A program made the position numbers and the translations under genes. From NCBI GenBank assembly GCA_049322355.1, contig JBMORG010000027.1, positions 139,808-203,807 of the forward strand: a stretch of DNA of 64,000 nt, written 5' to 3'. The notes under the pieces are model-generated. The model was given only the letters and a program-made list of their open reading frames with translations. It had not been told where the DNA came from and ran no database searches. Positions 1,250-22,204 of the stretch are shown in pieces. The stretch comes from Thermodesulfobacteriota bacterium. Its GTDB lineage: Bacteria; Desulfobacterota; Desulfobaccia; Desulfobaccales; 0-14-0-80-60-11. The first letter of the stretch is position 1. Each line of letters begins with the position of its first letter.

Positions 1250-1840
1250 ATGACTCCACCGGTGACTGCCGCTGAGCCGGGAAAAGACCCCAAAAGCATC
1301 GTTTTTGATGCGCAGGATCGCTTCCTGGCCCGGGATATCGAGCGGCTCAGCCAGAGCAACCTGAGCCGCTGCTACCACTGCCGCACCTGCGGCAACGGCT
1401 GCCCGTTCGTCCGGGCCATGGACTATCCGCCCAACGCCGTCATTCGTTTGCTCCAGTTCGGATTGCGCCAGCAAGCCCTGGAATGCTCCACCATCTGGAT
1501 CTGCGTAGGCTGCCACACCTGTTCCGTCCAGTGTCCCATGGGCATCGATATTGCCGCCATTATGGCCACGTTGCGGCGTCTGGCGTTGGAAGAGGGGGTG
1601 ATGATCCCCGAGTCCAACATCCTGGATTTCCACCGGGAAGTCCTCCATTCCATCAAACGCTATGGCCGGGCGCATAAGTTGGGGATTATGTTGCGCTACA
1701 AGACCAGGGTGCGCCAGTGGTTCGCCGATATGGATGTGGGCTTGAGATTGCTGGCCAAACGTAAGATGGACCTTCGGGCCTCCCGGGTTCAGGCCATCGG
1801 CGAAATCACCCGGCTGTTCATCCCCCATTGGAAGAGATAG
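1250..1840 (+). CDS. hdrC: HdrC-like 4Fe-4S dicluster protein (heterodisulfide reductase subunit C family)
   Basis: Two ferredoxin-type Cys motifs (CYHCRTCGNGCP and CVGCHTCSVQCP). Size and helical tail are as in HdrC. Immediately followed by a CCG-domain gene. Confidence 0.8.
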   Translation: MTPPVTAAEPGKDPKSIVFDAQDRFLARDIERLSQSNLSRCYHCRTCGNGCPFVRAMDYPPNAVIRLLQFGLRQQALECSTIWICVGCHTCSVQCPMGIDIAAIMATLRRLALEEGVMIPESNILDFHREVLHSIKRYGRAHKLGIMLRYKTRVRQWFADMDVGLRLLAKRKMDLRASRVQAIGEITRLFIPHWKR

Positions 1841-1842
1841 CC

Positions 1843-2706
1843 ATGGGCGGCAAAGGCAATCGGCTCACGGACATCTCTTATTTTCCCGGTTGTTCCATGG
1901 AGAGTTCGGCCCGGGAGAGCAACATCTCCCTAATGGAAGCCGCCAAGATTCTGGGCCTCAACCTCATCGAAGTGGAGGACTGGAATTGCTGCGGCTCCTC
2001 CTCAGTCAATATCCTGGATAAGGAGATCGCCTTCTCTTTAGCGGTGCGGAACCTTGCTCTGGCTTCGCCCCACCGCCCCCTCATGGCCATGTGTCCCCGC
2101 TGCTTATATCAGCTCCGGGAGGCCCATCAGCGCTTGCGGCAAGAGCCCGAAACCCTCCGGTCCCAGGAACGCCGCTGGGGCCGGACCATTTCCCTGGACC
2201 TGGAAATTATCCACTTTCTGGAGGTACTGGTGCGCCTGGGGCCGGAGCGCCTGAAACAGGGAGTGATGCGGAATCTGGGCGGTCTGAAATTTATGCCCTA
2301 TTACGGCTGCACCGTCTTTCGACCTCCGGCATTGCGTAAGGGCACCTATTACCAGGGAGAATTGGGAAATGTCCTGACCACGCTGGGCGGCGTCGCTATC
2401 ACCAGATGCCTCACCCACCGCTGCTGCGGCAGTTTTCTCACTGCGGCCCGGGCCGACGTGGTCACCCCCCTGGTGAACGAGATTATCGAAAGCGCGGTGT
2501 TAGCGGGGGCCGAATGTATTGTCACCTCATGCGCCATGTGCCAGCTCAACCTGGAAATCCGCTGCACCTGGGAGCCTCGCCTGCCCATCTTCCACTTTTC
2601 CGAAATCCTGGCCCTGGCCCTGGGCGCCCAGGATTACGAGGGCTGGTTCACCCGGCACCTGGTGGACCCGCGGCCGCTGCTCAAAGCCAGAAACCTGATT
2701 GCTTGA
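1843..2706 (+). CDS. hdrB: HdrB-like CCG-domain protein (heterodisulfide reductase subunit B family)
   Basis: Two Cys-rich CCG motifs (DWNCCGSS; HRCCGSF plus CAMCQLN). ATG 1843 is preceded by GGAAGAG; the ORF-track start at 1828 is an alternative codon. Confidence 0.8.
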   Translation: MGGKGNRLTDISYFPGCSMESSARESNISLMEAAKILGLNLIEVEDWNCCGSSSVNILDKEIAFSLAVRNLALASPHRPLMAMCPRCLYQLREAHQRLRQEPETLRSQERRWGRTISLDLEIIHFLEVLVRLGPERLKQGVMRNLGGLKFMPYYGCTVFRPPALRKGTYYQGELGNVLTTLGGVAITRCLTHRCCGSFLTAARADVVTPLVNEIIESAVLAGAECIVTSCAMCQLNLEIRCTWEPRLPIFHFSEILALALGAQDYEGWFTRHLVDPRPLLKARNLIA

Positions 2707-15013: not shown

Positions 15014-15520
15014 ATGTTGATCAAGGGGTACACCAAATCTTTTGTCCGCCCGCCCAATCCCAGCGCCCAGCACCTTCGCTGTTTCGCCGCGCTGGACGCA
15101 GACGTCACCGAAGTGCTGCCTTATTTGAATACTATACTCAAGGGTTATGAATACCTGACCGACCCGCCCTCGCTGACACTGAAATTGCTGGGGAAACTCG
15201 TCACGATTCATCCCCGGAAGGTTGCCATTAATATTGTTAAAGATGAACAGGAAGCCGATGAGATTTTGGAGTGGCTGACTCGAAACATCAACGAAACCTG
15301 GGACCGGAAGAACCAAATCGCCCCAAGTTTTAAGGCCGCGCCTAAACCCCGGGTCCTGGATATTCTGAGACTTTTGCCCAAGACCAACTGCGGTAAATGC
15401 GGCGCCCCCACCTGCATGGTCTTTGCAGTGGGGCTGAGCACGGGAGAGAAGGTTCCGGAACTATGCCCGGCATTGGGCCAGGAGAACCGGGAAAGACTAG
15501 GGAATATCTTGGGTGTTTGA
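15014..15520 (+). CDS. Fe-S protein with C-terminal PF04060-type (RnfB/CFeSP-like) putative 4Fe-4S motif; N-terminal domain unknown
   Basis: LLPKTNCGKCGAPTCMVFAVGL matches the LPxTNCGxCGxPTCxAFA motif of RnfB N-termini and corrinoid Fe-S protein subunits. SD AGGGGG upstream. Confidence 0.6.
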   Translation: MLIKGYTKSFVRPPNPSAQHLRCFAALDADVTEVLPYLNTILKGYEYLTDPPSLTLKLLGKLVTIHPRKVAINIVKDEQEADEILEWLTRNINETWDRKNQIAPSFKAAPKPRVLDILRLLPKTNCGKCGAPTCMVFAVGLSTGEKVPELCPALGQENRERLGNILGV

Positions 15521-15727: not shown

Positions 15728-16192
15728 TTAACCTGCCGCGGCTTTGGGCTGTTCGGCCAGCCAGGCCGCCCGGGCTTCCCGGTTCACCGGGCTGGGGCCC
15801 AGTTTCAAGGTCCGCTCCACCATTTCCTTGGCCAGGGCGGCGAATTTCGGCCCTTCCGAAGACGACAGGTTGAACATTTCCAACCGTTCCGGCTCGAACA
15901 CCCCCATCTGGGCGAAGTCCTTTTTTACCTTGTTGACCCGTTTTTTGGCCCGGATGTTGCCCATGAGATAATGGCACTCGCCCTCCAGGCACCCCGCCAC
16001 GAAGACTGAATCCGCCCCGGCTTCAAAGGCCTTGAGCAGGTGGATGATGTCCACCCGTCCGGTGCAGGGCATCATGATGACCTTGATATCCGGGGGGTAT
16101 TGCAGTCGCATCGAACCTGCCAGGTCCGCAGCGCTGTATGCTCAGTAACGGCAGCAAAAGCCGATGATTTTGGGAGACCACGCAGCAGTCAT
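15728..16192 (-). CDS. mvhD: MvhD-like (methyl-viologen-reducing hydrogenase delta subunit family) protein with in-frame UGA, predicted selenocysteine at codon 17
   Basis: The track ORF (15728..16111) starts at MRLQYPPDIKVIMMPCTGRVD. The same frame upstream reads ATG(16192) MTAAWSPKIIGFCCRY-TGA-AYSAADLAGS, with AGGAGG before the ATG. The TGA aligns with the second Cys of the MvhD FxCNWCSY motif. Confidence 0.75.
16108..16144 (-). promoter_or_regulatory. UGA (16144..16142) plus candidate bacterial SECIS hairpin
   Basis: The mRNA UGA-GCAUACAGCGCUGC-GGACCUG-GCAGGUUCGAUGC can form an imperfect stem of about 13 bp starting right after UGA. The G-rich apical loop lies 15-21 nt downstream. Confidence 0.5.
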
Positions 16193-16206: not shown

Positions 16207-19200
16207 TTATCCCGCAGCCAGAGCCGTTTCCTGGGCAATGATCTGGGCGTCGGTAAAGTTTTTCAGGGTGATGGCTTTGGCCGGGCACTCCGAGGGGCAT
16301 ACGCCGCAGCCCTGGCACTTGGCCGGGTCAATATAAGCCGCGTCCACGGTATAGTCGATGACCGGCACGTTGAAGGGGCAGGCCCGGACACAGGTGAGGC
16401 AGACGGCGCACTTGTCCTGATCCACCACCGCCACGATACCGCCCACCTCCACCATGGCTTTGCCCAGGAAGGTGGCAGCCCGGCCGGCCGCAGCTTTGGC
16501 CTGGGCGATGGACTCGTCGATGGGCTTGGGATAATGGACCAGCCCCGCCAGGAACATGCCGTCGGAGGGCAAATCCACCGGGCGCAGCTTGGCGTGGGCC
16601 TCATTGAGGAAGCCCTCGGCGTTCCGGGGCACCTTGAAGATTTCCCCGATGTCCTCCACCGGGTTGGGCAGTATTGCGGAAGCCAGGGTCAGAAGGTCGG
16701 GCTTCAGAACCACCGGGCGGTCCAGGATGGGATCAGTGATGGTCAATTGAAGCTTGCCCTCAGCCGATTGTTCCACTTTGGGTTTGCTGTCCAGATCGAA
16801 GCGGATAAAAATCACGCCCAGCTCCCGGGCCTCTTTGTAGAGCAGTTCCTTTTCGCCGTAGGTGCGCAGATCCCGGTAAAGGATGAAGACATCCATGTCG
16901 GGTTTGAGGCGTTTGAGTTCGATGGCGCCTTCCACCGAGTGGGTGCAGCACAGGCGGCTGCAATATGGCCGCTGGGGCTCCCGGGAGCCCACGCACTGGA
17001 TGAACACCGCCTGATTGGCCCCCATGATCTTGGGGTCTTTGGCGGCGACCAGTTTGTCGAACTCGAAGGCTGTCATGACATTGGGGTTTTGGCCGTACAG
17101 ATACTCTTCCGGCTGATAGGCTTGTCCGCCCGTGGCCATGATGGTGACGCCGTGATCCAACTGGCGCTCGCCCGCGGGCGTCTGAATCACCGTGGAGAAG
17201 TTGCCGATGAAGCCGCTGGTGTCCTTGACCGTGGAGTTGAAGATGATTTCGATATTGGGATGGGTCTCCACCTTCTTGATGAGGTCTTCCAGGTAGCCCC
17301 GGTAGTTGTAGCCCCGGGCGCTGGTCACCAGGTTCCAGGCCTGGCCGCCCAATTTATCGCCCTTTTCAACCAGATAGGCCTGGAAGCCCATATCGGCGAT
17401 GGAACGGGCCGACTCCATGCCCGCGACGCCGCCGCCGATGACCAGGCCGGCTTTCTGCACCGGGAAGGCCTGCTTGTGTAAGGGTTCCAGCTGCACCACC
17501 CGGGCCACCGCGCCCCGCACCAGGTCCTTGGCTTTTTCCAGGGCCTTTTCCGGTTCGTGCATGTGCACCCAGGAGTCCTGGTCCCGGATGTTGGCCATCT
17601 CAAAGAGGTAGGGGTTGAGACCCACCTGCTGAATGGTCTCCTGGAACATGGGCATGTGGGTCCGGGGGCTGCAAGATGCCACCACTACCCGGTTGAGTTT
17701 GTGTTCCTGAATGGCCGCCAGGATCTTGTCCTGGGTGTCGGCGGAACAGGTGAACAGGTTCTGGTCGGCCAGGACCACTCCCGGCAGGGAAGCGGTATAC
17801 TCCGTAAGGGCCGGGACGTTGATGACCCCGCCGATGTTGATGCCGCAGTTGCAGACAAAGACGCCCACCCGGGGCTCCTGGCCGGCCACATCGATCTCCG
17901 GCGGCAGTTCCCGCTTTTTGATGGCCGTGCCCCGGGCCGCGTGGAGAAGCTCACCCGCAGCCGCAGCCGCGGCGGAGGCCTCCATGACCGACTGGGGAAT
18001 GTCCTTGGGAGCCTGGAAGACGCCGCAGACATAAACGCCTTCCTTGTTGGTGCTCACCGGGGTAAAGGGAGAGGTGTCGGCAAACCTGGTTTCGGTCTTG
18101 ATCTCAATGCCCATGGTTTTGGCCAGGTTCAAGGCATCCCGGGAGGATTCCAGGCCCACGGAGAGGACCACCATATCGAAGGTTTCCGTTTTCAGCTCGC
18201 CCTTCTCCGAGAGGTAGCGGATGGCCACATCATCGGTGCCCGGCACCTGGTCAATGGTGTGGACCCGGGAGCGCAGGAAGCGGACGCCGTGTTCCTGTTC
18301 GGCCCGCCAGTAATACTTCTCGAAGTCCTTGCCGTGGGTCCGCATGTCCATGAAGAAAATGGACGTATCCAGCGTATAGTCTTTGCAATGCTCTTTGGCG
18401 ATGACCGCCTGCTTGATGGCATACATGCAGCACACCGCCGAGCAGTAGCTGTTGTCGCAGTGGTTCAGGTCCCGGGAGCCCACGCACTGGAGCCAGGCGA
18501 TCTTCAGGGGCTCCTTGTGGTCCGAAGGCCGGACCAGGTGGCCGGCAAAAGGCCCGGAGGCGCTCAAGATGCGCTCGAATTCCAGGCTGGTGACCACGTT
18601 GGGGAAATTGGCATAGTGATAGGCTTCGTATTTCTTAGGGTCATAGACCTGGAAGCCCGGAGCCAGGATGACTGCGCCCACGTCCAACTCCACCTTCTCC
18701 GGTCCCAGTTCATGGGCTACCGCTTTCGCCTGGCAGGCCTGGGCGCACTGCATGCACTCGGAGCAAATGCCGCAGTTGATGCAGCGGGCCGCTTCCTCCA
18801 CAGCCTGCTCTTCGCTGTAGCCCAGGTTGATTTCCTTGAAGCCCTTGATCCATTCCTCCACCGGCAGGGTCTCCATGAGGGCCCGTTGTTTCTTCTGGAT
18901 ATCTTCCGGAATCCGGTTCCACTGGCCTTCTTCCTTGGGAATGGGCCGCACCGGCAATTCCCGGTCGGCTTTCAGGTCTTTGCCCTCAAGGTAGCGCTCA
19001 ATGGAAGTTGCGGCTTCCCGGCCTGCCGCCACTGCGGCGATGGCGATCCAGGGGCCGGTTTCCACGTCGCCGCCGGCAAAGACACCTTCGCGAGAGGTGG
19101 CCTTGGTGACCGGGTCGGTTTCGATGAGTCCCCGGGGGGTCAGCTTGAGGCCGTCGGCTTCGGTGATGAACTTCAGGTCGGTCTTCTGGCCGATGGCCAT

Positions 19201-20679
19201 GATGACTATGTCGGCATCCTGGGTGGTGGTTTTATCTTCAAAGTAGGTGGGGGAGAACCGTCCCTGCTCGTCGAAGACCCGCTCCACCGCCTTGAGGGTG
19301 AGCCCGGTTACCTTGCCGCCCGCGGCGTTGATTTCTTTGACGCCCCAGCGGTTAATGACCGTGACACCCTCGTGCTCGGCCTCTTCCACTTCCCACGAGG
19401 AGGCAGGCATCTCTTCCCGGGTCTCCAGGCAGATGAGGGTGATGTTCCCTCCCTGGCGCCGGGCGGTGCGGGCCACGTCCATGGCCACGTTGCCGCCGCC
19501 GATGACCACCACTTTTTTGCCGCTGAAATCGAACTTCTTGCCTGAGGTGGAATCCTTCAAGTATTCCACGCCCCAGAGCACGCCCTGGGCGTCAGACCCT
19601 GGCACCGGCAGGCGGATGGAGTCCTGAGCCCCCACACCCACAAACACGGCGCTGAAGCCGTCCCGGGTGAGGAGATCGTTGATGGTGCGGTCGCCGCCGA
19701 TGGGGGAGTTGTAGTGGATTTCCACGCCGCAGCGCTTGATGTAGTCCACTTCCCGGTCCAGGACTTCCCGGGGCAGCCGATATTCCGGGATGCCGTAGCG
19801 CAGCCAGCCGCCCGCAGCGGGCGCGGCCTCAAAGATCACCGGTTTAAAGCCTTTCAGGGCCAGGTGGTAGGCGCAGCTTAACCCGGAAGGGCCGGCGCCG
19901 ATGATGGCCACCGACTGGCTCTTTTTGGGCGCCTCCGGCACCGGCAGGGCGCTCCAGTCCACCGCGTCCGCCACAAAGCGCTTCAGGTTGCAGATGGCAA
20001 TGGGCTCATCCACGTCCTGGCGGCGGCAGTCGGTCTCGCAGGGGTGGGGGCAGATGCGGCCGATGGTCCCCGGCAGGGGCAGCCGGTCCATGATCAGGGC
20101 CAGGGCCTCAGGGTACTTGTGTTCCTTGATGAGCTGCACATAGCCCTGGGCGCTCAAGTTGGCAGGACAGGCCCTTACGCAGGGGGCCCGGTCCGCCTTC
20201 TTGATGGCGAAGGTGGCGGGAATGGCCTGGGGATAGAGGCGGTAAACGGCCTTGCCTTCGGCCAGCCCCAGGTTGAACTCGTCGGGCACCCGCACCGGGC
20301 AGACCTCAGCACAGGTCCCGCAGCCGGTGCACTTGGCAGGGTCAATGTAGCGGGGTTCTTTTTCCACGCTGACCTTGAAATTCCCCGGCGTGCCGGCGAT
20401 GGCCTTCACTTCCGACAGGGTGTGGATTTGAATGTTCAGGTGCCGGCCGCATTCCACCAACTTGGGGGAAATGATGCACATGGAGCAGTCATTGGTGGGG
20501 AAGGTCTTGTCCAACTGGGCCATAACCCCGCCGATGGCCGACTTGTTTTCCACCAAATGGACATAAAAGCCAGAATTAGCCAGGTCCAGGGCTGCCTGCA
20601 CCCCGGCGATCCCGGCGCCGATCACCATAACTTGACCTACTGGACCTTGTGTTTCGGCTGCCATAAATATACCTTCCAT
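16207..20679 (-). CDS. hdrL: Giant HdrA-type fusion (HdrL-like): HdrA module interrupted by a GltD/NfnB-like NAD(P)H oxidoreductase module, followed by a second HdrA module
   Basis: 1490 aa. Motifs: VIGAGIAGVQAALDLA, FPTNDCSMC and CTGCGTCAEVCP (HdrA); CPHPCETDCRR, IIGAGPSGL, VVVIGGGNVAMD and FAGGD (GltD/NfnB-like, aa about 165-565); WLQCVGSRD...CSAVCC; second FAD module VIGGGVAGM...FIQCVGSRE...CSRLCC; C-terminal 2x[4Fe-4S]. The start could instead be ATG 20664. Confidence 0.9.
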   Translation of the reverse strand: MEGIFMAAETQGPVGQVMVIGAGIAGVQAALDLANSGFYVHLVENKSAIGGVMAQLDKTFPTNDCSMCIISPKLVECGRHLNIQIHTLSEVKAIAGTPGNFKVSVEKEPRYIDPAKCTGCGTCAEVCPVRVPDEFNLGLAEGKAVYRLYPQAIPATFAIKKADRAPCVRACPANLSAQGYVQLIKEHKYPEALALIMDRLPLPGTIGRICPHPCETDCRRQDVDEPIAICNLKRFVADAVDWSALPVPEAPKKSQSVAIIGAGPSGLSCAYHLALKGFKPVIFEAAPAAGGWLRYGIPEYRLPREVLDREVDYIKRCGVEIHYNSPIGGDRTINDLLTRDGFSAVFVGVGAQDSIRLPVPGSDAQGVLWGVEYLKDSTSGKKFDFSGKKVVVIGGGNVAMDVARTARRQGGNITLICLETREEMPASSWEVEEAEHEGVTVINRWGVKEINAAGGKVTGLTLKAVERVFDEQGRFSPTYFEDKTTTQDADIVIMAIGQKTDLKFITEADGLKLTPRGLIETDPVTKATSREGVFAGGDVETGPWIAIAAVAAGREAATSIERYLEGKDLKADRELPVRPIPKEEGQWNRIPEDIQKKQRALMETLPVEEWIKGFKEINLGYSEEQAVEEAARCINCGICSECMQCAQACQAKAVAHELGPEKVELDVGAVILAPGFQVYDPKKYEAYHYANFPNVVTSLEFERILSASGPFAGHLVRPSDHKEPLKIAWLQCVGSRDLNHCDNSYCSAVCCMYAIKQAVIAKEHCKDYTLDTSIFFMDMRTHGKDFEKYYWRAEQEHGVRFLRSRVHTIDQVPGTDDVAIRYLSEKGELKTETFDMVVLSVGLESSRDALNLAKTMGIEIKTETRFADTSPFTPVSTNKEGVYVCGVFQAPKDIPQSVMEASAAAAAAGELLHAARGTAIKKRELPPEIDVAGQEPRVGVFVCNCGINIGGVINVPALTEYTASLPGVVLADQNLFTCSADTQDKILAAIQEHKLNRVVVASCSPRTHMPMFQETIQQVGLNPYLFEMANIRDQDSWVHMHEPEKALEKAKDLVRGAVARVVQLEPLHKQAFPVQKAGLVIGGGVAGMESARSIADMGFQAYLVEKGDKLGGQAWNLVTSARGYNYRGYLEDLIKKVETHPNIEIIFNSTVKDTSGFIGNFSTVIQTPAGERQLDHGVTIMATGGQAYQPEEYLYGQNPNVMTAFEFDKLVAAKDPKIMGANQAVFIQCVGSREPQRPYCSRLCCTHSVEGAIELKRLKPDMDVFILYRDLRTYGEKELLYKEARELGVIFIRFDLDSKPKVEQSAEGKLQLTITDPILDRPVVLKPDLLTLASAILPNPVEDIGEIFKVPRNAEGFLNEAHAKLRPVDLPSDGMFLAGLVHYPKPIDESIAQAKAAAGRAATFLGKAMVEVGGIVAVVDQDKCAVCLTCVRACPFNVPVIDYTVDAAYIDPAKCQGCGVCPSECPAKAITLKNFTDAQIIAQETALAAG

Positions 20680-20923
20680 TTACTCAGGATATTTATATTT
20701 TATAACAAATTTTGTGCAGATATTGTGAAATTACCCACTAGTCCATCCTAAAAGATAATGTTCAATATGTCAAGAGAGAATGAAAACTCTTGCTGCCAGG
20801 CAAACTGTTGTCCCCTATCTTGATTAGGGCCGGAAAATGCTTAAGATTATGACAACTGCATCTTCCGGCCCGAGGAAAAAAAGTAGCAAGGCTATACTTC
20901 TAATACCATTTTGCAGTCGAATG

Positions 20924-21364: not shown

Positions 21365-22204
21365 ATGATTCCCTTATCCGATATCCAGGCGGCAGTGCCG
21401 GGTTTTCTGGAAATCCTGGGCCTTACGGAGGAACCCCTGGGGATGTTGTATGCCTCCGTGGAGCCCGCCGAAGGCTTCTCACCCCAGAGTGCTGTTTTGC
21501 CCAGCGTGGATATGGAAGCCCGGGGTGAAGTGGATTGGGCTGCGACCTTTCAGAATTTTTCCTGCGTCATTAGCCATATCTGGCGGGCGCGCAAGTTGGG
21601 CAAGCCCGCCTTCTTCCACCAGGCCCGCTTCGGCTGCCTGGGGGGCGCCTTTTACCTGGGCTTTTTAAAACCGCAACTGGACTTCATCGTGCATTACGTC
21701 TCCACCGGCATCCCCAACGTCCTGGAAGGGGAGTGCTACCTGGATTCCCCCGCGGCCGTCCGCCGCTTCTTTGAAACCGTGGACCCGCGGCCGGCGCCGG
21801 CGCCCTTCTGTGTGTTCAAGGCCTTGAGCCAATTCACCCCCGAGGAGACCCCGGAAGTGGTGATCTTTTTTGCCCGGGGGGAGGTCATCGGCGGCCTCAA
21901 TCAGTTGGCCACCTTCGTCACCAACGACTTCGAGGCGGTGATGTCCCCCTTCGGCGCCGGGTGCTCCAATATCGTGACCTGGCCCTTGAAATACCTGGAA
22001 CAGGGGCGGCTGAAGGCGGTTCTAGGGGGCTGGGACCCATCCGACCGGCGGTTCTTGAAGCCTGATGAAATCACCTTTGCGGTGCCCTGGGAGATGTTCA
22101 CCAGGATGATTGAGCGCTACCGGGACTCCTTCCTCACTAAACCCACCTGGGCATTAGTCCGCAAAAAGATCGAACTGAGCCGCAAGGTATGGAAGGAGAA
22201 GTAA
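21365..22204 (+). CDS. Hypothetical protein, DUF169 (COG2043)-like
   Basis: 279 aa with a good SD (GAGGAG, 9 nt). The FGCLGGAFYLGF region and the size recall DUF169. This assignment is from memory and is not certain. Confidence 0.55.
   Translation: MIPLSDIQAAVPGFLEILGLTEEPLGMLYASVEPAEGFSPQSAVLPSVDMEARGEVDWAATFQNFSCVISHIWRARKLGKPAFFHQARFGCLGGAFYLGFLKPQLDFIVHYVSTGIPNVLEGECYLDSPAAVRRFFETVDPRPAPAPFCVFKALSQFTPEETPEVVIFFARGEVIGGLNQLATFVTNDFEAVMSPFGAGCSNIVTWPLKYLEQGRLKAVLGGWDPSDRRFLKPDEITFAVPWEMFTRMIERYRDSFLTKPTWALVRKKIELSRKVWKEK

Follow-up and report, generated by a model that had tools for sequence, protein, structure and literature searches.

Flavin-based electron bifurcation of the HdrA type is the foundation on which methanogens, sulfate reducers, acetogens, and degraders of aromatic compounds conserve energy. 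Here we analyze hdrL and mvhD, two adjacent genes in a 64-kb stretch of DNA (64,000 nucleotides; hereafter the window) from contig JBMORG010000027.1 of a Desulfobaccales bacterium (genome G000, 3.6 Mb), which we compared with related genomes (numbered G001 upwards). The best overall explanation of the locus, to which we assign a probability of roughly 60%, is that HdrL and its small partner MvhD form the core of a bifurcating enzyme linked to reduced nicotinamide adenine dinucleotide (NADH), that the hdrL gene is a recombinant, and that a further partner is encoded elsewhere.

The open reading frame (ORF) of 1490 codons at 16207-20679, reported in an earlier note on this DNA, is real and contains no internal stops (Table 1). 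The true length of HdrL is probably 1485 residues, because orthologs begin at Met6 (ATG at 20664), which has GGAAGG in front of it. Downstream of hdrL, mvhD follows after a gap of 14 nt that contains a GGAGG; a search for a terminator-like site between the two genes gave none, and a candidate promoter precedes hdrL. We predict from this arrangement that hdrL and mvhD are a two-gene operon of a sulfate-reducing Desulfobaccales bacterium. The operon is flanked on one side by a divergent DUF169 gene, ridA, and punA, and on the other by a convergent gene for a small Fe-S protein, guaB (IMPDH), ppx, and hpt.

Table 1. Features of the hdrL-mvhD locus, in window coordinates, with residue numbers of the 1490-codon frame
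Feature	Position	Strand	Description
hdrL ORF	16207..20679	-	1490 codons, stop-free (ORF listing); HdrA2 and GltD/NfnB-like models
mvhD	15728..16192	-	154 aa; FlpD/MvhD domain; in-frame TGA at codon 17
Candidate operon promoter	20745..20773	-	sigma-70-like TTGACA-17-TAGGAT; only a 10/12 consensus match; 66-94 nt upstream of hdrL
HdrA unit 1, first part (aa 1-161)	20197..20679	-	FAD GxGxxG, C65/C68 pair, first CxxCxxCxxxCP motif; hdrL-a lineage
Codons C65-S-M-C68	20476..20487	-	C68 (20476-20478) corresponds to archaeal HdrA Cys197
GltD/NfnB-like insert, "type I" cassette (aa 162-638)	18766..20196	-	model match, conserved Cys, Rossmann folds
Codons C417-L-E-T-R421	19417..19431	-	end of beta-2, NAD(P)H Rossmann fold
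HdrA unit 1, second part (aa 639-930)	17890..18765	-	second ferredoxin motif C639, C642, C645, C649
Putative recombination crossover zone (aa ~920-1000)	17680..17922	-	upstream hdrL-a/AA1-like, downstream AA2-like
HdrA unit 2 (aa 934-1490)	16210..17880	-	N-terminal-type domain, thioredoxin reductase-like FAD domain, C-terminal ferredoxin domain; AA2 lineage

Architecture and cofactor sites of HdrL and MvhD

Profile searches agree with the single-chain HdrA / GltD-NfnB / HdrA fusion of HdrL type described in the earlier note: the NCBIfam model HdrA2 matches in four stretches (959 bits), PRK12771 (GltD/NfnB-like) matches residues 161-667 with 535 bits, above its curated cut-off, and the Pfam domains found are Fer4_20, Pyr_redox_2, and Fer4. 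We regard the protein as almost certainly of the HdrL/BamE type. All four domains of the archaeal HdrA of MvhAGD-HdrABC (5ODC, 8RVU) are found in HdrL at 40-60% local identity and with their ligands kept: residues 14-161 correspond to 143-290 of 5ODC_A (start of the thioredoxin reductase-like domain that binds flavin adenine dinucleotide [FAD], the DCSxC pair, and the first motif of the inserted ferredoxin domain), residues 639-859 to 293-511 (second ferredoxin motif and remainder of the FAD domain), residues 934-1112 to 2-180 (N-terminal cluster domain and beginning of a second FAD domain), and residues 1341-1483 to 501-645 (C-terminal two-cluster ferredoxin domain). Unlike in archaeal HdrA, these domains are spread over two fused units, a module for NADH or its phosphate (NADPH; together NAD(P)H) is added, and there is no HdrBC or hydrogenase.

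Unit 1 is without the N-terminal and C-terminal domains of HdrA, and unit 2 has neither the inserted ferredoxin domain nor the Cys pair nor the lysine at flavin N5, so the "complete second HdrA module" of the earlier note does not stand. Because each unit is without domains that the other has, the two are complementary halves of a domain-permuted, BamE-like HdrA pseudodimer. The hallmarks of a bifurcating HdrA flavin site all lie in unit 1: Lys756 (nt 18412-18414, in CCMYAIK), which corresponds to HdrA K409 and BamE K280 at the bifurcating FAD and is invariant (52/52); the C65/C68 pair; and the four invariant [4Fe-4S] ligands of the thioredoxin reductase-like domain, C732, C746, C750, and C751. 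Unit 2 has Glu1250 in the place of the flavin lysine, cluster ligands in its N-domain (C943, C945, C978, and C1003) and in its FAD domain (C1229, C1240, C1244, and C1245), and two [4Fe-4S] sites in its C-terminal domain. An alignment of 52 relatives shows 44 cysteines that are invariant or nearly so, which make up nine [4Fe-4S] sites: the insert, the inserted ferredoxin domain, and the C-terminal ferredoxin domain hold two each, and the N-domain and the two FAD domains hold one each. Residues for three flavins and for these nine clusters, as well as for the MvhD cluster, are present and conserved.

Six relatives have TGA, read as selenocysteine (Sec), at the position of Cys68 (20476-20478), the second Cys of FPTNDC(A/S)M[C/U]; the earlier note had placed the Sec-equivalent site three codons off, at Cys65 (20485-20487), and was right that HdrL has Cys at this site and that its partner MvhD uses Sec. 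The in-frame TGA of mvhD (nt 16142-16144) puts Sec17 in FCCRYUAY. Read with Sec, MvhD has a complete FlpD (PF02662) domain (2.9e-45, positions 1-123/123), in which U17 aligns with the Cys of paralogs (FLCNWCSY); the same TGA is present in the orthologous mvhD of G001, and G000 encodes tRNA-Sec and SelB. No known family of selenocysteine insertion sequence (SECIS) elements was matched in Rfam between 15000 and 21500 at E up to 1, and a hairpin 8 nt past the TGA (58-nt fold) is no stabler than shuffled sequences (z = -0.76). The Sec reading therefore rests on homology, on the TGA kept in orthologs, and on tRNA-Sec and SelB, not on a SECIS fold.

The inserted ferredoxin domain of unit 1 has two CxxCxxCxxxC motifs, and the nucleotide-binding insert fills precisely the space that separates them. 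The insert contains two Rossmann folds, one for FAD (aa 256-295) and one for NAD(P)H (aa 389-430), and eight invariant cysteines (C167, C171, C210, C214, C218, C230, C633, and C636) for two [4Fe-4S] clusters, so that the central module does carry nucleotide-binding motifs. The earlier note's GltD/NfnB-type NAD(P)H module after the first ferredoxin motif is therefore upheld as to module and placement; its kinship is closer to NfnA(Bfu) (9BOV_A, 388 bits) and StnC (8OH5_C, 339 bits), its nearest solved relatives, than to NfnB (4YLF_B, 260 bits over 403 residues). The insert shares with NfnA(Bfu) (9BOV), StnC (8OH5), and NfnB (4YLF, 5JCA) the sites for FAD, NAD(P)H, and two [4Fe-4S] clusters and a trailing "RCxxCG", and its R301 aligns with R239 of StnC and R201 of NfnB. 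Unlike these proteins, it is inserted in an HdrA ferredoxin domain, has LE(T/S) and not YRR in its NAD(P)H fold, and has no NfnA-type partner. A further difference is an extra cysteine close to the proximal cluster: Cys230, invariant in HdrL proteins, stands three residues ahead of K233, which itself aligns with the position of an unusual cluster ligand (Lys170 in StnC, Glu in NfnB). The NfnB hallmarks, YRR and the Glu ligand of the proximal cluster, are absent; no nfnA is adjacent, and a genome-wide search for nfnA was not made. In the NfnABC complex of Bfu type (9BOV, PMC11829005) and in Stn (StnC, 8OH5, PMC10482914), the GltD-like domain is where NADPH enters; it does not itself bifurcate but sends electrons one at a time over clusters to another site, which does.

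The end of beta-2 in the NAD(P)H Rossmann fold reads I-C-L-E-T-R-E-E-M-P-A in the window HdrL, where Glu419 is the E of L-E-T, and V-Y-R-R-(S/T)-x-x-E-M-P-A in NfnB, StnC, NfnA(Bfu), and many HdrL paralogs. Insert type and motif coincide, type I cassettes carrying LE(T/S) and type II cassettes YRR. In Rossmann folds, an acidic residue at the end of beta-2 favors NAD(H) and Arg-Arg favors NADP(H), and the same acidic versus Arg difference distinguishes NADH- from NADPH-glutamate synthases. Because LE(T/S) stands where NADPH proteins have YRR, the balance tips slightly towards a preference of the window HdrL for NADH over NADPH.

HdrL was named in 2009 in the genome of Desulfobacterium autotrophicum HRM2, which encodes HdrL1-HdrL3, each hdrL being followed by mvhD and several of the products being selenoproteins (Strittmatter et al., PMC2702500); the earlier note's statement that similar large fusions have been annotated as HdrL in some sulfate reducers is thereby borne out. 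Syntrophobacter fumaroxidans has an HdrABC/HdrL cluster (Sfum_0819-0824), and its HdrL is abundant in sulfidogenic proteomes (PMC5947623). NADH-linked electron cycling or confurcation has been proposed for the HdrL proteins of these two species (PMC2702500, PMC5947623), and an fdhAB-hdrL-mvhD cluster has been discussed in Desulfurivibrio dismutans. We class the window protein as HdrL by its architecture and by the published descriptions of the D. autotrophicum and S. fumaroxidans proteins, to which it is similar. The similarities are the "heterodisulfide reductase/glutamate synthase fusion" itself, large size and solubility, an NAD(P)H site, an mvhD gene directly after hdrL, and the use of Sec in HdrL and/or MvhD. 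Unlike the window, the loci of those two species have dsrABC, fdhAB, or hdrABC as neighbors; in the window, the Sec site of HdrL is Cys, and Sec is in MvhD. Searchable literature yielded no purification or assay of any HdrL, in line with the earlier note, which knew of no biochemical characterization.

The two-unit backbone has a structurally solved analog in BamE of the class II benzoyl-CoA reductase of Geobacter metallireducens, a fused, domain-permuted HdrA dimer with seven [4Fe-4S] clusters, a bifurcating FAD at Lys280 (unit 1), a non-bifurcating FAD at Gln768 (unit 2), and a redox-active Cys59-Cys62 pair; BamF is its MvhD-like adaptor, with Sec19 by a [2Fe-2S] cluster, and BamE is active only inside the multi-subunit complex (bioRxiv 10.64898/2026.04.10.717634). 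Like BamE, the window HdrL has a lysine only at the unit-1 FAD, a Cys pair at that flavin, and an MvhD-type adaptor with Sec. BamE differs in having no GltD/NfnB insert, NADH entering through BamGHI, and in working with BamD (HdrD-like) and BamBC, whereas the window HdrL has none of these linked to it. No BamBCDEFGHI benzoyl-CoA reductase cluster is present around hdrL, whose neighbors encode DUF169, RidA, PunA, the Fe-S protein, IMPDH, and Ppx.

Probable recombinant origin of hdrL and likely exchange of its nucleotide module

Six genomes of the same genus (G001, G003, G004, G009, G011, and G015) have a tandem form of the locus at the same site, between the same DUF169/ridA/punA and guaB (IMPDH)/ppx flanks. 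The tandem operon runs hdrL-a (1480 aa), a BamF-like mvhD, a double hdrA that we call AA2 (1008 aa), and mvhD; in G015 the place of hdrL-a is taken by a 1022-aa double HdrA without the insert. AA2, which is a BamE-type protein, also occurs in a sister genus, and no separate copy of hdrL-a or AA2 is left in G000. The window HdrL resembles one of these two proteins at its start and the other at its end: identity to hdrL-a and to AA2 is 82-87% and 55-57%, respectively, over residues 1-160, 78% and 65-67% over residues 640-930, 78-80% and 82-86% over residues 934-1300, and 59-60% and 89-94% over residues 1320-1490. In trees of these segments, the window clade joins hdrL-a/AA1 in the first two (96-98 in the Shimodaira-Hasegawa-like approximate likelihood ratio test, SH-aLRT) and AA2 in the last two (SH-aLRT 97-99). 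A triplet informative-site test, repeated with three donor pairs and three chimeras (including the G016 and G005 orthologs), places the breakpoint at residues ~923-990, with 95 hdrL-a-like to 24 AA2-like sites on its left and 31 to 104 on its right (Fisher p 4e-20), and the nucleotide sequence switches parent between residues 940 and 1000. These data make it very probable that the window hdrL is a recombinant of the tandem paralogs hdrL-a and AA2. One set of results speaks against this: approximately unbiased (AU) tests that force a single clade are not rejecting for segment A (chimeras with AA2, p = 0.15) or segment D (chimeras with hdrL-a, p = 0.48). They fail to reject because the long stems of hdrL-a and AA2 re-attach cheaply, and the case for a chimera therefore rests on the triplet test, the identities, and synteny.

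Nucleotide identity between the tandem genes is 75-78% along ~2.2 kb, where stretches of 38-45 nt match exactly, and the simplest history is a single ~3.9-kb deletion by recombination between them. Such a deletion would have cut away everything from the last part of hdrL-a through the BamF-like mvhD to the first part of AA2, leaving a fusion of the first ~950 residues of hdrL-a with the last ~500 of AA2 and keeping the MvhD of AA2. Over its C-terminal 127 residues, the window MvhD has 82-89% identity to the one encoded just after AA2 in tandem loci, so we take it to be the cognate partner of the C-terminal half of HdrL. The long BamF-like MvhD is found only in the ancestral tandem locus, not at the window locus.

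The intervening gene of the tandem operon (e.g., L032:3766-4620 in G001, with equivalents in L033, L035, L036, and L037) encodes a BamF-like MvhD of ~295 aa, which ORF finders cut into pieces of 68 and 167 aa. Its Sec, at FG-U-HLGDCH, replaces a different Cys from that at the Sec site of the window MvhD, and its C-terminal extension may be a winged helix. In two tandem loci hdrL-a is broken, by a TAA in G004 (L033:8199-11807) and by frame changes past residue ~770 in G011 (L035:8005-12166); because AA2 and its mvhD stay intact beside it, this suggests that hdrL-a is dispensable once AA2 is present.

The fused 1485-aa frame is shared by at least nine other genomes of the genus (at least 10 in all); among protein sequences it recurs in more than 50 clusters, with identities as low as ~72%, and some copies lie on contigs of 0.9-3.4 Mb. 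The ratio of nonsynonymous to synonymous substitution rates (dN/dS) is 0.12-0.13 in every segment of the window hdrL, at dS 0.44-0.54. By these measures, both the fusion and the replacement of the nucleotide module described below are judged to be old and under purifying selection.

The nucleotide-binding insert has a history that differs from that of the backbone. The window insert is 82-90% identical to the inserts of its closest orthologs, 81% to the hdrL-a insert of G011, and 73% to the insert of a paralog in G000 that is linked to hdrCB and metVF, but only 50-52% to the inserts of G005 and of hdrL-a in G001 and G009. G005 nevertheless has the same chimeric backbone, with insert flanks 86-91% identical to those of the window HdrL, and the inserts of G005, G001, and G009 are 72-77% identical to those of two other G000 paralogs. 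For the insert segment, the grouping seen in the backbone is rejected by the AU test (p = 5e-46), the boundaries of exchange coincide with conserved ferredoxin motifs, and in the public collection each backbone, hdrL-a or chimera, occurs with each insert, type I or type II. It is likely, on this evidence, that the nucleotide module of the window HdrL was swapped independently of the fusion. The architecture itself was already known; the recombinant origin and the module swap are new here.

A broader proposal is that HdrLs are plug-and-play proteins, in which homologous recombination at conserved ferredoxin motifs swaps whole NADPH (YRR) and NADH (LE) modules from paralog to paralog, in which recombination of tandem genes re-pairs bifurcating with non-bifurcating HdrA halves, and of which HdrL-MvhD would be the minimal natural NADH-linked bifurcating unit. 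We consider this proposal somewhat doubtful; if it is true, HdrL-MvhD would be a tractable model of a two-electron donor wired into HdrA. The natural recombinants form a series, one backbone occurring with YRR or LE modules and one module on several backbones, that offers ready domain swaps for the study of nucleotide specificity and of the roles of the HdrA halves. The locus also documents how multi-domain redox proteins diversify, by deletion-fusion of tandem paralogs and by cassette exchange.

HdrL paralogs, proposed electron path, and rival explanations

A protein search gave more than 7,900 relatives of HdrL at E up to 1e-50, a lower bound, annotated as "heterodisulfide reductase subunit A-like polyferredoxin" or "FAD-dependent oxidoreductase", the closest among the matches listed being from metagenome-assembled genomes of Desulfobaccales. 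HdrL is common in the genomes of anaerobes. G000 alone encodes four full-length HdrL paralogs and about six BamE-like double HdrAs (~1000 aa), its insert-free paralogs measuring 1000-1100 aa. The nearest biochemical data are those on MetFV-HdrABC-MvhD, the methylenetetrahydrofolate reductase of Moorella thermoacetica; as summarized in PMC5861303 (from Mock et al. 2014), its HdrA has two FAD and oxidizes NADH. Three Desulfobaccales HdrL paralogs share the Moorella-type gene order (hdrCB)-hdrL-mvhD-metV-metF. One G000 cluster (G000:C1:173115-185096 and C1:173206-180621) reads hdrC-hdrB-hdrL (type I, LE)-mvhD (Cys)-metV-metF and is, by analogy, a Moorella-type methylenetetrahydrofolate reductase with HdrL in place of HdrA; another (G000:C29:143195-150793 and C29:143765-151168) reads metF-like-hdrL (type II, YRR)-mvhD (Sec)-metV-metF, without hdrCB. 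G000 thus appears to hold NADH-type and NADPH-type MetFV-HdrL complexes side by side. Across 30 related genomes, most HdrLs sit in (hdrCB-)hdrL-mvhD-metV-metF clusters, and because of this HdrL in Desulfobaccales would be mainly the NAD(P)H-binding core of Moorella-type methylenetetrahydrofolate reductases, which fits an acetate-oxidizing Wood-Ljungdahl metabolism. The window copy, with neither metFV nor hdrCB, is an exception among HdrLs in having no linked partner.

Two further observations concern these paralogs. The G000 cluster on C1 ends with a further hdrA-like gene and an mvhD-like gene. The fourth HdrL (C29:1497; G000:C29:1054-5969) follows a gene for a 114-aa CGGC-domain protein and has no mvhD; it combines the backbone of the C1 copy (73-84%) with the insert of the C29:145256 copy (89%), and its G016 ortholog lies in an hdrCB-hdrL-mvhD-metVF cluster.

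For the window HdrL we propose, tentatively and at somewhat below even odds, a bifurcation scheme with a partner supplied in trans. NADH would exchange hydride with the FAD of the insert, and single electrons would pass from the two clusters of the insert over the two clusters of the ferredoxin domain to, or from, the unit-1 FAD. That flavin, with Lys756 and Cys65/Cys68, would bifurcate or confurcate between two routes, one over the unit-1 [4Fe-4S] cluster to a partner encoded elsewhere (of HdrBC or HdrD type, possibly acting on DsrC), and the other, of low potential, over the clusters of unit 2 and the C-terminal ferredoxin domain to MvhD and ferredoxin. The unit-2 FAD (Glu1250) is probably non-bifurcating, and the likely docking site of Sec-MvhD, which has a [2Fe-2S] cluster, is close to the C-terminal ferredoxin domain.

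Several points weigh against an NADH-linked bifurcating core with a partner elsewhere. No linked partner gene was found in the ~17 genomes examined. The NADH assignment depends on one motif and a general Rossmann-fold rule, and we infer from sequence the direction of electron flow, the third substrate, and bifurcation itself. Moreover, the inserted ferredoxin domain is the low-potential output in HdrA and BamE, and a mid-potential NADH module at that point fits the canonical scheme poorly; the actual electron wiring may differ from that proposed.

The absence of a hydrogenase or HdrBC partner beside the operon, stated in the earlier note, is confirmed by a scan of the window: the operon itself contains no gene for formate dehydrogenase, hydrogenase, or HdrBC, no [NiFe] hydrogenase is encoded in the 64 kb, and one molybdopterin enzyme gene lies 23 kb from the operon. 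No gene of the CCG (HdrB) type lies in the operon or within ~13 kb of it, the nearest, at 1828-2706, being unlinked. The window locus is in this sense a minimal two-gene HdrL unit, without any other linked subunit, and the earlier note had read it as self-contained. On that reading, HdrL and MvhD alone would make up a full NAD(P)H-linked bifurcating or confurcating enzyme, to which its other two substrates, ferredoxin and some small protein or thiol (DsrC, for example), would dock directly as soluble carriers. The two-gene unit is indeed kept without another linked redox gene in at least 10 genomes under purifying selection, the ancestral tandem locus likewise has no HdrBC or catalytic subunits, the Sec of MvhD by its cluster and the Cys pair of HdrL at its flavin make thiol/selenol chemistry available, and G000 encodes DsrC. 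Set against this, every studied HdrA-type system uses a CCG subunit (HdrB, HdrD, or BamD) for the high-potential substrate, HdrCB and/or MetVF accompany paralogs encoded in the same genome, and HdrL has a single pyridine-nucleotide site. G000, which encodes dsrAB as well as dsrC, has ~11 genes with CCG domains. Because most paralogs in the order are subunits of (hdrCB-)hdrL-mvhD-metV-metF complexes, and BamE likewise acts as a subunit of a larger complex, we consider a self-contained enzyme unlikely and a partner encoded elsewhere the likelier case.

Less likely again is a non-bifurcating oxidoreductase between NADH and ferredoxin or another one-electron carrier, in which the HdrA flavins would serve as relays or have a structural role, as for the second FAD of BamE. 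In favor of such an enzyme, the insert is most akin to GltD-like domains that do not bifurcate (those of StnC and NfnA(Bfu)), no local gene encodes a third-substrate subunit, and this lineage has lost the BamF-like mvhD and half of each parent gene. It is, however, hard to square with the retention of Lys756 in 52/52 relatives, of the Cys65/Cys68 pair, and of all cluster ligands of both branches, with dN/dS that is equally low across segments, and with the endergonic nature of electron transfer from NADH to ferredoxin without coupling. The suspicion that hdrL is a frameshift, an assembly fusion of tandem paralogs, or a decaying pseudogene draws on its being the junction of two genes that stand in tandem in sister genomes, and on the decay of hdrL-a in G004 and G011, and is effectively refuted: we found no frameshift fusing separate genes, the same junction recurs in at least 10 species-level genomes (at least nine besides G000), in more than 50 protein clusters, and on contigs of up to 3.4 Mb, its halves have diverged from their parents (78% and ~85-90% identity, not 100%), the parents are too dissimilar (75-78% nucleotide identity) for an assembler to collapse them, and dN/dS is ~0.12.

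Close relatives, at 72-78% identity, are found among proteins labeled Desulfobacca, so that there may be an experimental source.

Neighboring genes and further redox clusters

The DUF169 (COG2043) gene (21365-22204, plus strand) is divergent from hdrL over a 685-bp spacer, and its position is kept (81-86% identity) in all genomes from which that flank was recovered, whether the locus is tandem or fused. A functional tie to hdrL is possible; a literature search on DUF169 found nothing relevant. On the other side, a plus-strand gene (15014-15520) converges on mvhD; its 168-aa product carries a PF04060 "FeS" motif at the C terminus. The gene adjoins the locus in G016, lies nearby in G009, and probably encodes no partner of HdrL-MvhD, because it is missing from the site in G003, G004, G005, and G011.

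At the far end of the window (1250-2706, plus strand), an HdrC-like gene (Fer4_8; 1250-1840) is followed by an HdrB-like gene with two CCG domains (1828-2706), the sole CCG gene of the window, so that the earlier note was correct in calling this the only HdrBC-like pair. As a partner of HdrL the pair was rejected, since it is unlinked and lies between surE and a zinc alcohol-dehydrogenase-like gene.

Elsewhere in G000, an 869-aa frame (G000:C14:258-2579, minus strand), ~6 kb from dsrAB (C14:8787-11090), combines a GltD/NfnB-like region (39% identical to the HdrL insert) with two CCG domains, and its product is possibly an NAD(P)H-linked disulfide or DsrC reductase. Finally, the region G000:C29:323100-332200, which encodes the large subunit of a [NiFe] hydrogenase (with one TGA), an HdrA-like protein, an MvhD-like protein, and a double HdrA with its mvhD, looks like a cluster of the Mvh/Hdr type.

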